A stretch of DNA of 64,000 nucleotides from Eledone cirrhosa (lineage: Eukaryota), in assembly GCA_964016885.1 (NCBI GenBank), contig OZ024740.1, forward strand, positions 278,008,001 to 278,072,000, written 5' to 3'. Numbering within the stretch: position 1 is the stretch's first letter; every line of letters begins with the position of its first letter. Both the position numbers and the translations under genes were made by a program. Below the pieces are notes generated by a model. It did no database searches and had not been told where the DNA came from. It saw only the letters and a list, made by a program, of their open reading frames with translations. This document shows, in pieces, positions 33,534 through 53,704 of the stretch.

Positions 33534-34137
33534 GGTCACCACTTGGTGCTACTGGTAACATGTATCCCAGTACAACCTGTCTCATGGTCGGGTCGTTGGC
33601 GACTAAACTGGCAACCCCACCAAGGTTTCTTGGTGAGGAGGGTGACTTTGGACATCCTGCAGGACTAAAAACAAAACCTGTCAAAGGGCAAAGTAGCTCT
33701 TAAGAGTCAATGGCCATCCAAAATCACTGGGAGAGATGACCCCTTAGCCTTTGTCAAGGCAGAATTCTAGGAGAAGGAAAACTCTGATATAACACCTGCA
33801 ACCCTGATGGTATCCAATGATGTTGACTTGTTCTTCTTTTTGGTAAATATCATCTTGGTTAAGAGAGTGGGACTGGCTTTGTGCAGTGGCTTTGCTCACT
33901 ATAAAAGCTTCACGGCACAGGCATTGCTTTGTATCTGGAGATCTCTCTGCACTTGTCGTCACATGGTACCAAAGGTAAAGCACTATGTGTCAATAATTGT
34001 CACAAGTGTAGTGTGTGTACCAGAGTTTTCAAGTTGCTGGCTGGACTAAAATGTCACACTCGTTCAGCGCATCGGTAGGGGTTCTCCTACATGGATATAA
34101 AGTAGTGGCCGTACTCGAAAACGAGTTGCCAGCCACC
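33534..34137 (+). mobile_element. ~600-bp bipartite non-autonomous RTE-like element (X0), inserted in (TATG)n
   Basis: An RTE-type 5' UTR motif ctaggagaaggaaaactctga (33767-33787, recognised from memory) is followed by a terminal C2H2 finger remnant CSVC...KCHTRSAHR* (34007-34078), a ctcgaaaacgag hairpin and an (ATGT)n tail. Confidence 0.75.
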
Positions 34138-35479
34138 ATGTATGTATGTATGTATGTATGTATGTATGTATGTATGTATATATGAATACGTATATATATA
34201 TATATATATATATATATATATAAGTTATTCCGGGTTGAATCGGAGGTAACCACAATAAGTAAGGTACTCAATACAGATCTAGTCCTGTAGAAGCTCTTCT
34301 CTCTCTCTCTCTCTCTATATATATATATATATATATATATATATATATATATATATATATATATATATATATATATATATATATATATATATATATATAT
34401 ATATATAAATATATGGATGGATATGCGTGTGTAAACCTTGAGGCTACTATTTTTCTTTCACTCTCTCAATTTATCTTTGAATTTCCTACACGCTCTGTTG
34501 TGTTTTAAGACGATTCTAAAGTCAATCAAGAAATATCTCCACAGACCCACATATACACACATATACACTGGGAATTTCTGTGAGAATATATATATAGATA
34601 TATGCGAACAGCATAAGAATGTTGGAATATATGAAAGAATTATCCATATATAAATATAACTTCTGATTTTACTCTTGAATTGTTTCCTATTTTATGAAGA
34701 TTATAAGACAAAACGAGAAGAAAACCAAAAATATCTGCACAATAGAACCTCAATTCCTACCGGCATTGCAACTTTCTGAAATACTTAAAAGGCAAAGCAG
34801 ACAACAAATCTTCTTTTAGAGCCAGGGAATTGACAGTAAATTATAAACGGATGAAAGAGCATTTCTTTAAATGAAAATGAATATGACAAAAAGTGTTTAA
34901 ATTTATTGACTTTCTAGGTTGAAGTGCTCCTACAAATGCCTATTGATTTGTGGAAAATTTGTTAAAATTAATAAGACGATCTGATCAAGCCGTTCCAATT
35001 ACTAAAGTTACTAAGGCGAACGAATCATGCTTCTGTGCATTGAACTCCACTAATATGAATATCTGAAATTATAATATGATTGCACCATAAATCACCCACA
35101 GCGAGAGTTATGTAGGAATAGTACACATAAACATGCTTTCATGCGTGACTCTATTGTTAATAACGTCACTGATAATTAATGCGAGTCTACCAAGTTTTAA
35201 CAATAAAGAAATTAGCATCTCAGCTTGAGCTTGGGCTCACCTCAGTAGCAGATGGATACAATTCCTGACACAATATGATCTGATGTTCTCATACGTCTAA
35301 GGTAGCTGAGACATGTATGGTCCCGTAACTCATGAGTGACTCGTAGGGGCGCTGCATTGACATACGGCGTTTCTAGAGCATTTTAAAACCTGACGGCGCC
35401 TATCCATTTCCAGATTTTTCCAGAAAAGGACCGGAAGTGAGAGAATGAAAGTGAGAAAGATACATATAGTAACAAGCGA

Positions 35480-35615
35480 CCCCGGTACTTGACTGGAACA
35501 TTTTATGGACACCAAATGGATGCAAGACAACGTTGACCTCGGTAGGATTTGAACTGAGAGAGCAAAGAACTGAAACGGACACCGCAAAGTATTCTATCCA
35601 ACGTTCTAATGACCC
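35480..35615 (-). mobile_element. SINE remnant related to 61995 (also 14030-14170, 8565-8650, 9775-9880)
   Basis: Shared motif ttgacctcgg..ggatttgaact.aga. Confidence 0.55.
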
Positions 35616-35704
35616 TGTGACGTGATCACAGTTTAAAATACCTATAGCAAGACATCAATACATAAATACATACATACATGTATACATGCATAAATAGATA
35701 TATC

Positions 35705-35990
35705 GAAGACCCACTTCGGTCACGAATGACCATGGGATTTGCACCTAGAAAGTTTCCCTCCGAGGCACAAGTCCGGGAAAGGTTGTTTGAGGAAGATCAG
35801 CAGTCGCCCATGCATAACAGTCTCCCCTCTTCACGCCACCGATGATGTCCAAAGGAAAGGGTATGGCTAATACAGATTGGCAGTGACGTCGTAACTCATT
35901 TCTACAGCTGAGTAAACTGGAGCAACGTGAAATAAAGTGTCTTGCTCAAGGACACAACACATCACTAGGTCCGAGAATCGAACACGCAAC
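35705..35990 (-). mobile_element. SINE of the same family, truncated at the adjacent LINE fragment
   Basis: ggagcaacgtgaaataaagtgtcttgctcaagga...ggtccgagaatcgaac matches 12025-12090. Confidence 0.7.
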
Positions 35991-35994
35991 ATTT

Positions 35995-50079: not shown

Positions 50080-51012
50080 ATATACATGTATATATACATA
50101 CATGCATATATACATATATACATACATACATGTATATATACATACATATACATACATACATACATACATACATACATACATACATACATACATACATACA
50201 TACACATACATACATATATATATACATACATACATACATACATACATACATATACATATACATACATACATACATACATATACATACATACATATACATA
50301 CATATATACATATACATACATACATATACATACATATACATATACATACATACACACATACATACATATACATATACATACATATATATATACATACATA
50401 TACATATACATACATATATATATACATACATATATATATACATACATACATATACATACATATATATACATACATACATACATACATATACATACATACA
50501 TATACACATATACATACACATACATATATATACACATATACATATACATACATACACATACATACATACACATACATACATATATATATACATACATATA
50601 TACACATACATACATATACATATACATACATATATACATATACATACACACATATATACATACATACATACACACATACATACATATACATACATATACA
50701 CACATACATACATATACACACATACATACATATACATACATATACATACATACATACATATACATACACACATATACATACATATACATACATACATACA
50801 TATATACATACATACACACACATACATACATACATATATATACATATACATACATACATATACATACATACACATACACATATATACATACATACATACA
50901 TACACATACATACATACATACATATACATACATACATACATATACACACATACATATACATAGATACATATATATACATATACATACATACATATATATA
51001 CATACATACATA
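50080..51012. repeat. ~930-bp degenerate (TACA)/(TA)/(CA) compound microsatellite
   Basis: Seen directly; it consists almost only of T, A and C. Confidence 0.97.
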
Positions 51013-51013
51013 T

Positions 51014-51621
51014 GGTGGCTGCCAACTCGTTTTCGAGTACGGCCACTACTTTATATCCATGTAGGAGAACCCCTACCGATGCGCTGAACGAGTGTGACTT
51101 TTTAGTCCAGCCAGCGACTTGAAAACTCTGGTACAAACACTACACTTGTGACAATTACTGACACATAGTGCTGGGCCCATGGTACCATGTGACGACAAGT
51201 GCAGAGAGATCTCCAGATATAAAGCAATGCCTGTGCCGTGAAGCTTTTATAGTGAGCAAAGGCACTGCACAAAGCCAGTCCCACTCTCTTAACCAAGATG
51301 ATATTTACCAAAAAGAAGAACAAGTCAACATCATTGGATACCATCAGGGTTGCAGGTGTTATATCAGAGTTTTCCTTCTCCTAGAATTCTGCCTTGACAA
51401 AGGCTAAGGGGTCATCTCTCCCGGTGATTTTGGATGGCCATTGACTCTTAAGAGCTCCTTTGCCCTTTGACAGGTTTTGTTTTTAGTCCTGCAGGATGTC
51501 CAAAGTCACCCTCCTCACCAAGAAGCCTTGGTGGGGTTGCCAGTTTAGTCGCCAACGACCCGACCATGGGACAGGTTGTACTGGGATACATGTTACCAGT
51601 AGCACCAACTGGTGACCTGAC
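51014..51621 (-). mobile_element. RTE-derived element X6
   Basis: Reverse complement of X0, X2-like subtype. Confidence 0.8.
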
Positions 51622-51708
51622 ATGCATACATACATACATACATACATACATACATACATACATACATACATACATACATACATACATACATACATACATA
51701 CATACATT

Positions 51709-53684
51709 TACTAACTAACAAAATGATTCAGGAAAAAACAACAAAGAATCGCAGAAACATGACTGTCGTGTGGCTGGACTATCAAAAAGCATTTGATAGT
51801 GTACCTCATGGGTGGATTATTAAGGCTTTACAGTTAGCTAAAGTCCCACAACCATTGGTAGCTGCCGTTGAACGCCTGACCAAGAACTGGTACACCAATT
51901 TGATCCTTAGAGGTGAGAAGGAGCAGGTTAAGACTGATAAGATACATTACCAGAAGGGCATCTTTCAGGGTGATAGCTTGTCAGTGCTACTCTTCGTTCT
52001 CTCACTGAATCCACTATCTTACCTACTCAGGAAACAAGGTGGACAAAGAAGTGGGCCCAGAAGTATCTCCCATCTTTTCTTTGTTGATGACCTGAAGTTG
52101 TATGGGCCAAATATCAATGACATCAAGAAACAATTGGACCTCATTACACAATTTCCGGCCGACATCAAAATGAAATTTGATGAGTCCAAGTGTGCATATT
52201 TGGCAGTAAAACGTGGAAGAGCTGTGCCCTCCTCTAGAAATCTAGAGATGAACGGCCTGATACTACAACCTCTGCAGTCAGGTGACAACTACAGATATCT
52301 TGGACAGGATGAGAATGTCAGATATGATGGACCCATAAATAAGGAGAGAACCAGAACTGAATACCTCAGAAGAGTAAAGAAAATATGGTCATCAGAACTG
52401 TCAGCATACAACAAATACATTGCCCACAATACTTATGCTGTGCCAATTCTAACGCCAACATTTGGCCTACTGAACTGGTCATTGCAAGAACTAAGTGATA
52501 TGGATGTTAGAACTCGAAAACTTCTCAGTGTTACTGGCAACTTTAACATCAATGGTGATGTGGATAGGCTATACTTCTCACGCAAGGAAGGTGGCCGGGG
52601 TCTAAAATCAATATTAACAACATATGAGACCCGGATAGTAACACTGATGCAACACCTTCAACAGAGGAAAAAGGTTGGCAACCATCTTGCCCAGGTTTAT
52701 GAGCATGAAAAAAGAAATATCATTAGAATAGCGACTGATCTGGAGGAGAGATATGGAATAAAGCCTGATATAAATCTCTCACCCAGAGAAATCGGAAGAT
52801 CCTATTCAATGTCCAAACAAGATAAGAAAATTGACCAATTTACAGAAAAGTTGTGCATGGATACTTGAGGCGTAAAACACAGAGCATAGAGGGGATAAAC
52901 CACTCAAAAAAGCCTGGCATGGAGTTCCGACAAGTTTATGACATCACACCTTGAGGGATATCTCTATGCAATACAGGAACAAGAACTCCCTACCAAATAT
53001 CTGCTGCACAAAAGAGGAGGGCCAGCAGCTGACAATAAATGTAGGCTATGTAAAACAAAGATCGAGGATGTAAGCCACATTGTTGCCAGCTGCGAAAGAA
53101 TGTCATCTCGCTACTACCTCCCCATGAGACACGATGGGATAGCTAGAACCATCTGGAACGCACTTCGGAAAACAAAATTAACAACAAACGAGGAAGAATA
53201 TATTGAGACAGATGGCACTAAGGAACCTGAAAATAAAAACTGCCACCATATTAAAGCACAACCGGCCTGATATTGTTGTTTGGGACCACACATTGAAAAC
53301 GTGTTCTGTTGTGGAGATCAGCTGCCCACTTGATGTAAATGTTGTCAGAAAAATACAGGAGAAGGAGGACATCTACGGACGATTGATGAGGAGTTTACAA
53401 ATCCAGTATCCAAGATACACCTTTAGCTTCATACCCATCATTATTGGAGCTATGGGTTATATACCAACCCGCTTCGACCAAAGTATGACTGATCTTGGAT
53501 TTGCGGACAAAAGGCGCAGCTCCCTAATTCATAGTCTACAAATGGCTGCGATAGCTGGCACCTTCAAAATTTGCAAAACATTCTTGCGATTCAAGGGATG
53601 ACAATTTCTTTTATCTTACAACCTTGCCACCAGGAAGGTGGCCGGTCAAAAAAAATATACTCGAAATTAAGAGAAAGAGATAAA
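51709..53684 (+). mobile_element. R4/Dong-like LINE copy D (3' half)
   Basis: ORFs 51723-52868, 52938-53270 and 53203-53601. It has the same 5' junction as B and C, a private ~11-bp deletion near 53225, and its 3' end runs into (CATA)n. Confidence 0.92.
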
Positions 53685-53704
53685 CATACATACATACATA
53701 CATA

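Follow-up and report, generated by a model that had tools for sequence, protein, structure and literature searches.

A 64,000-nucleotide stretch of the Eledone cirrhosa genome (OZ024740.1, positions 278,008,001 to 278,072,000; hereafter the window), which lies on the largest contig of this 3.0-Gb genome, carries two families of retroelements interleaved on opposite strands of a TA/CA-alternating microsatellite. One is a long interspersed nuclear element with a restriction-like endonuclease (RLE), referred to here as the LINE (copies A to E); the other is X, a non-coding element (copies X0 to X6). The explanation we favor, with a probability of about three in four, is that both families share this target and enter it from opposite strands, that the cluster in the window arose through tandem duplication in place, with further X copies inserting afterwards, and that neither family needs the other. 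The first-pass annotation of the window had read the same pattern as a possible partnership, in which X seeds the target of the LINE and might also promote or process its transcripts.

A probable shared target used from opposite strands

The opposite-strand co-location of X and the LINE is a genome-wide feature, found at unlinked loci on many contigs and not confined to this duplicated locus. Among 69 LINE loci (the 39 closest to copy E and the first 30 on contig C1), X adjoins the far end of the LINE-flanking tract at 19 of the 59 visible upstream ends and at 10 of the 69 downstream ends. The total, 29 of 128, is far above the ~0.25% expected from copy number, for which the X count is a lower bound; as background, sixty random 10-kb stretches held three young X copies and one LINE. 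Orientation follows a near-absolute rule, with 28 X copies antisense and 2 sense in the 39 LINE loci and 67 against 2 at 140 arrays. The relation is lopsided because X uses (TA)n as well, and a young LINE lies within 1.5 kb of 1 of 30 unselected X copies.

The LINE reads 5' to 3' on the (TACA)n strand, with TACA repeats following 75 of 83 distinct LINE 3' ends and TGTA following none of the 83, and X reads on the (TATG)n strand. In the mechanism we propose, two independent retrotransposition machineries would use the same TA/CA-alternating microsatellite from opposite strands, giving an antisense pile-up. By analogy with standard target-primed reverse transcription, the LINE's own RLE would nick the (TGTA)n strand, and an apurinic/apyrimidinic endonuclease (APE) encoded by an RTE element would nick the (TACA)n strand for X. 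The 3' end of each RNA would pair with the nicked strand, so that the orientation of insertion would be fixed.

A partnership, as the first-pass annotation framed it, should appear as co-occurrence beyond that expected from shared (TACA)n abundance, and this excess vanishes once long (TACA)n arrays are taken into account. Pure TACA runs of at least 32 nt number 59,458 in the genome (summed over four pattern phases). Arrays from random regions (X at 0 of 22) were too few and too short to serve as a control, and pattern-based samples were used in their place; a full census of C1 from 0 to 14.15 Mb yielded 57 tracts, 48 of which were LINE-free. X adjoined these LINE-free arrays on the left in 18 of 48 cases and on the right in 13 of 48 (against 19/59 and 10/69 for the LINE tracts; p 0.68 and 0.10, respectively). 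For all sampled LINE-free arrays the counts were 34/122 on the left and 25/122 on the right (p 0.60 and 0.34 against the LINE-flank rates), with phase-weighted rates of 0.33 and 0.25. X is thus equally common beside long arrays that lack a LINE, and a partnership beyond the shared target is not supported. The neighbors of X are mixed: beyond 50 full-length X heads followed by a pure array (a sample that overlaps the earlier loci in part) lay the LINE in 7 cases (p 0.14 against 6/94; p 1.0 against 4/34), another X in 9, an RTE or Y element in 8 and L2, a second RLE LINE family, in 3. At least four families occupy common arrays, where the elements are non-nested and linked by microsatellite.

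The proposed route of seeding, in which a (ATGT)n tail of X would create or extend (TACA)n, is not supported either, since X brings no such tail and the sequence just 3' of it is that of the target. Three or more TGTA units occur in the 3' flank of 18 of 28 copies with a TGTA-bearing 5' flank, against 2 of 31 copies without one (p 4e-6). Informative target duplications, present in 9 of 175 X copies (10-18 nt in eight, 41 nt in one), begin right at the last base of X, and the end of LINE A is likewise without a tail. Furthermore, tail seeding would predict tail-to-tail neighbors, yet tail-to-tail is the rarer class.

The two elements and the local cluster

Counted by an exact 26-mer from the 3' end, X has 24,906 copies or more, and it contains no open reading frame (ORF) by six-frame translation, no tRNA and no Rfam family at gathering score. 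Its sequence fits the bipartite class of non-autonomous, RTE-derived elements. Positions 192-398 are 69% alike (157/229 nt, E 9e-21) to the 5' untranslated region (UTR) ahead of an ORF with APE and reverse transcriptase (RT) at locus L068, the 3' part still holds what is left of the final C2H2 finger of an RTE-type ORF (19 of 41 amino acids identical, E 1e-8), and the terminal 40 nt are similar to an RTE 3' end. The 5' (L068) and 3' (L241) RTE pieces were joined as one family through overlapping RT text, not from a complete copy. We infer that an RTE protein mobilises X. An RTE-type LINE with C-terminal C2H2 fingers occurs in the same arrays and on the strand of X (L068:5740-8130; L241; L267). 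A protein search with the 57-amino-acid remnant in X returned a blank, which carries little weight. The 5' truncation points of X cluster at positions 193-206, where 16 of 148 copies start, close to the position of an internal microsatellite in the older Y/RTE UTR; this cluster could mark an RT stop or an RNA cleavage site.

The view that the two retroelements are unrelated is borne out, in that X and the LINE share no sequence and X has no significant similarity to the LINE (best E 0.42) or to L2. That X is a short interspersed nuclear element of the RLE LINE was also considered and rejected on this ground and for want of a common 3' tail.

The LINE appears R4/Dong-like in its domain layout. 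Copy E matches Pfam RVT_1 and zf-RVT and carries, in the C-terminal ORF piece, an endonuclease-type motif conserved in seven homologues; its N-terminus forms a conserved block with no zinc finger in the homologue alignment and no Pfam match. The best named relative among the 120 matches listed, none of them a named R4/Dong reference sequence, is from Argonauta hians (66% protein identity). L2 shares 47% amino acid identity with E over 128 amino acids, and both use the same repeat on the same strand. At least 3,900 LINE copies are present (exact 26-mer at the 3' end), flanked by (TACA)n or mixed TA/CA and not by the (TAA)n of Dong in the narrow sense. No hepatitis delta virus (HDV)-like ribozyme of the LINE was found with a home-made descriptor that lacked a positive control, or in Rfam at gathering score; the Rfam hits, which were microsatellite sequence mimicking miRNA models and further weak matches, stayed below this score. 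The C-terminal ORF piece had no relevant match in the PDB. Three of six full-length LINEs begin directly behind the 3' end of another LINE (L061, L091 and window 53688-53705). A very young subclade comprises L064, L069-L071, L073 and L076; L064 and L069 lie on different contigs and show no difference across 2 kb, which suggests recent LINE activity.

In the window (Table 1), the first-pass annotation gave correct positions for the seven young X copies and for one older relative. Its statement that X in the cluster always lies antisense to the LINE is also correct, for the six X copies there and for Y relative to A-D; X0 has the orientation of the LINEs and sits in an inverted array beyond the cluster. 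What had been called a diverged X copy is indeed a relative of X, but is an older sister element, Y, with 84% identity to X 8-195 followed by 79% identity to the 5' UTR of an RTE LINE. Each truncated LINE does start near an X-type 5' end, at ~67 bp for A, ~214 bp for B, ~218 bp for C and ~89 bp for D, with TA/CA microsatellite alone in between.

Table 1. Features in and around the cluster, in their order along the window, from self-comparison and direct reading
Feature	Position in window	Strand	Description
X0	33534..34138	+	Full-length X in inverted (TATG)n array, outside cluster
L2	35990..37487	+	5'-truncated copy of second RLE LINE family; ends in (TACA)n, repeats 37488-37552
Y	37640..38205 (left edge approximate)	-	Older non-autonomous RTE-type relative of X
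LINE A	38272..41682	+	Truncated at element position 796; without (TACA)n tail
Unique 3' flank of A	41683..41930	+	Duplicates behind B (45437-45694) and C (48580-48828)
X1	41978..42582	-	Same ancestral insertion as X3 and X4; common 9-bp deletion and substitutions, 0.7-2.0% apart
X2	42628..43232	-	Later insertion in first spacer copy; 9-10 bp target duplication; paralogous spacers lack X2
LINE B	43446..45436	+	Truncated at element position 2236
X3	45774..46371	-	Duplicate of X1/X4
LINE C	46589..48579	+	Truncated at 2236; 0.5% from B
X4	48920..49517	-	Duplicate of X1/X3
Mobile X dimer	49669..51620	-	X5 49669-50079; array ~50080-51012, 935 bp TA/CA; X6 51013-51620, full length
X5	49669-50079	-	Truncated at ~X position 196; part of dimer
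LINE D	51709..53688	+	Truncated at 2236; short (TACA)n 3' flank
LINE E	53705..57926	+	Full-length RLE LINE with RT, CCHC finger and PD-type endonuclease motif; frameshifts break ORF

The regularity of these junctions is largely a product of duplication. LINEs B, C and D share the same start base and the same imperfect spacer, form a clade with support of 100/99 among 22 copies, and have a truncation point that occurs in none of 39 other copies; B and C differ from D by 1.2-1.3%, and all three differ from A and E by 1.9-2.8%. These shared features identify B, C and D as tandem duplicates of a single 5'-truncated insertion, so that their junctions are scored as one. The ~250-bp flank behind A, B and C has only three copies genome-wide above 76% identity, and 3' transduction of a LINE with its flank was rejected as the origin of the cluster because the flank is confined to this locus. 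B and C carry the derived bases of D until ~120 bp before the 3' end and then the flank of A, a pattern that unequal crossing-over between A and D would leave; two rounds of amplification of the unit flank-X-spacer-LINE would have come from such an exchange at the 3' ends. X2 and the X5-X6 block each occur in one of the three spacer copies, and thus arrived later. Two original events underlie the four head-to-head junctions.

Elsewhere in the window, the poly-G tract of the duplicated flank varies in length across its copies (41844-41867, 45607-45627 and 48740-48763), and a ~1.6-kb block is duplicated at 1-1600 and 31943-33534 (94-97% identity), ending just before X0. Two adjoining open frames at 58613-59890, without a Pfam match, have motifs that we take to be those of a Penelope-type RT and endonuclease.

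The X5-array-X6 block (window 49669-51620; subfamily loci L435-L442) is, to judge from its recurrence at other sites, one rare mobile dimer. The junction between truncated X5 and the array has 11 genomic matches as a 36-mer (5 contigs) and 19 as a 20-mer (7 contigs). All four of the other copies examined, out of ten, have the same structure, with a homologous array of 913-975 bp (alignment scores 173-312 against shuffled maxima of 154-161) and a following X that is 99.5-100% identical to X6. The cargo arrays hold 164-171 TACA units and lie at dispersed sites; local growth of the 935-bp array was rejected on account of these homologous arrays elsewhere. One copy is 5'-truncated at X position 393 and another ends in 17 nt of inverted X; 5' truncation and terminal inversion are expected marks of retrotransposition. 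In the window, a single short duplication brackets the block and the paralogous spacers lack it. The most likely origin of the dimer is an X transcript that continued through an array into a truncated X downstream, and the dimer would move as one read-through RNA. The idea that X spreads TACA-rich DNA therefore survives in a restricted form, by way of the internal cargo of the rare dimer and not by way of a tail.

Rival readings of the shared arrays

Several observations weigh against passive shared targeting as a complete account. The LINE lies on the right of 8 of 42 arrays with X on the left against 6 of 94 without (p 0.034, uncorrected, one of four comparisons), and a matched stratum leans the same way (14/33 against 34/122, p 0.14), as does the count of 7 in 50 X heads against 6/94; a residual head-to-head excess of up to about twofold is possible. 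Elements adjoin 109 of 140 long arrays, so that a comparison conditioned on arrays would mask any seeding if the arrays are themselves built by insertions; the array controls come from the first 53 Mb of C1. Long pure arrays are commoner 5' of the LINE (33/59 against 19/69, p 0.001) and of X (42 against 25, p 0.05). Passive shared targeting does not explain this 5'-side bias, which makes head-to-head pairs commoner than tail-to-tail pairs and may stem from a preference in the site of cleavage or from synthesis of repeat units at the 5' junction. In addition, a direct autonomous parent of X was not found, the closest RTE among the examined loci being ~69% alike.

One alternative is one-way niche construction, in which the RTE machinery would make and ship the landing pads of the Dong-like LINE, through dimer-borne arrays and through lengthening of pure (TACA)n at the 5' junctions of X, Y and the dimer, and the LINE would then use them. 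The enrichment of long pure arrays at 5' junctions, the weak head-to-head excess and the delivery of 913-975 bp arrays to dispersed sites are all in keeping with it, as is the greater average age of X copies (median pairwise divergence 4.0% against 2.5% for LINE copies, measured in different regions). However, the dimer makes up only 11-19 of at least 24,906 X copies, none of the five cargo arrays seen contains a LINE, an ordinary X adds just a 10-18 nt target duplication in eight of nine informative cases, and in the window both X2 and the dimer postdate the LINE junction. We regard this alternative as unlikely, well below shared targeting with local duplication. If it were true, the niche of one retrotransposon clade would be the work of a second, and retroelements would have produced most of the genome's long TACA arrays.

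A functional head-to-head pairing, with X as an antisense promoter or RNA processor for the LINE, would draw on the upstream rate of 19/59, about twice the tail-to-tail rate of 10/69. The LINE-free arrays show the same left-right bias, however, and the 5' end is missing from 10 of the 19 head-to-head X copies. Of six full-length LINEs, only one has X upstream, in the form of a fragment covering X 313-606; A-D are without the start of the ORF and cannot encode the protein. Both strands of X were also scanned with a crude descriptor, which gave no HDV-like or hammerhead motif. Given that the local regularity reflects duplication, we consider the functional role suggested in the first-pass annotation highly improbable. 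Equally little credence attaches to a purely local artefact of duplication or misassembly, for although B, C and D and likewise X1, X3 and X4 are duplicates, they are 0.5-2% apart with different later insertions, and the recurrence of the same adjacency and orientation at unlinked loci rules it out as the whole explanation.

Relation to known systems

Several components of this arrangement are already in print: microsatellite targeting by non-LTR elements (PMC4640811, PMC3812793), bipartite RTE elements (PMC5786205), microsatellite-linked arrays (PMC5907723) and RTE-borne repeats (PMC2887409). We found no paper on the X family, a TACA-targeting Dong element or the dimer in a search that took in few subscription papers and neither Repbase nor Dfam; supplements may list such families.

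The LINE resembles R4/Dong elements (Dong of Bombyx mori, DongAg, DongBg and ostracod Dong; PMC7998251, PMC3812793) in its RT, C-terminal CCHC finger and RLE, in its insertion into microsatellites and in that no N-terminal zinc finger is seen. A diverged SANT/Myb-like N-terminal domain without zinc fingers is an R4/Dong trait (PMC7998251), and a 5' HDV-like ribozyme has been described for R4/Dong RLE LINEs (PMC3774820). The target differs, being (TACA)n or mixed TA/CA here and (TAA)n for Dong; ACAY repeats are a reported target of APE-type Waldo elements (PMC3812793). In octopuses, Dong-R4 and RTE elements are listed as abundant (PMC8967140, PMC13282606), in passages that give no target motif, and recent Dong-R4 activity is recorded for Octopus vulgaris (PMC13282606).

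X shares with the bipartite RTE elements Bov-A, RTESINE1/2, WALLSI3 and RTE-N (Kojima, 2018; PMC5786205) the combination of a 5' UTR part and the 3' end of an RTE LINE, as well as the absence of an ORF and of a tRNA head, short target duplications and frequent 5' truncation. It differs from them in its remnant of the last zinc-finger codons, its strong strand polarity in TA/TG repeats and its dimer subfamily with 0.9 kb of microsatellite cargo, and in being only ~69% like the RTE found.

The arrays as a whole recall the modular SaTar arrays of guayule and rice (PMC5907723), in which unrelated families with a shared target are joined end to end by microsatellite without nesting. SaTars are DNA transposons with terminal inverted repeats (Mutator-like elements, MULEs), whereas here both families are retroelements that show 5' truncations and obey a fixed strand rule. 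The present system documents, with counts, how two classes of endonuclease use one repeat under a near-absolute opposite-strand rule, and it illustrates how shared targeting together with duplication can mimic partnership; the TACA-seeking RLE and the strand-biased RTE are candidates for work on target choice.

Finally, microsatellite families of Lepidoptera have been traced back to RTE elements as their progenitors (Tay et al., 2010; PMC2887409), and there too RTE-clade elements are associated with simple repeats and spread them. In that case the repeat lies within the 3' UTR, whereas an ordinary X lacks a tail and spread takes place through the internal cargo of the dimer. This cargo-carrying dimer is what is new here: it provides direct sequence evidence that a retroelement moves a ready-made 0.9-kb microsatellite as cargo, and so bears on the question of how microsatellites spread (PMC3397955).

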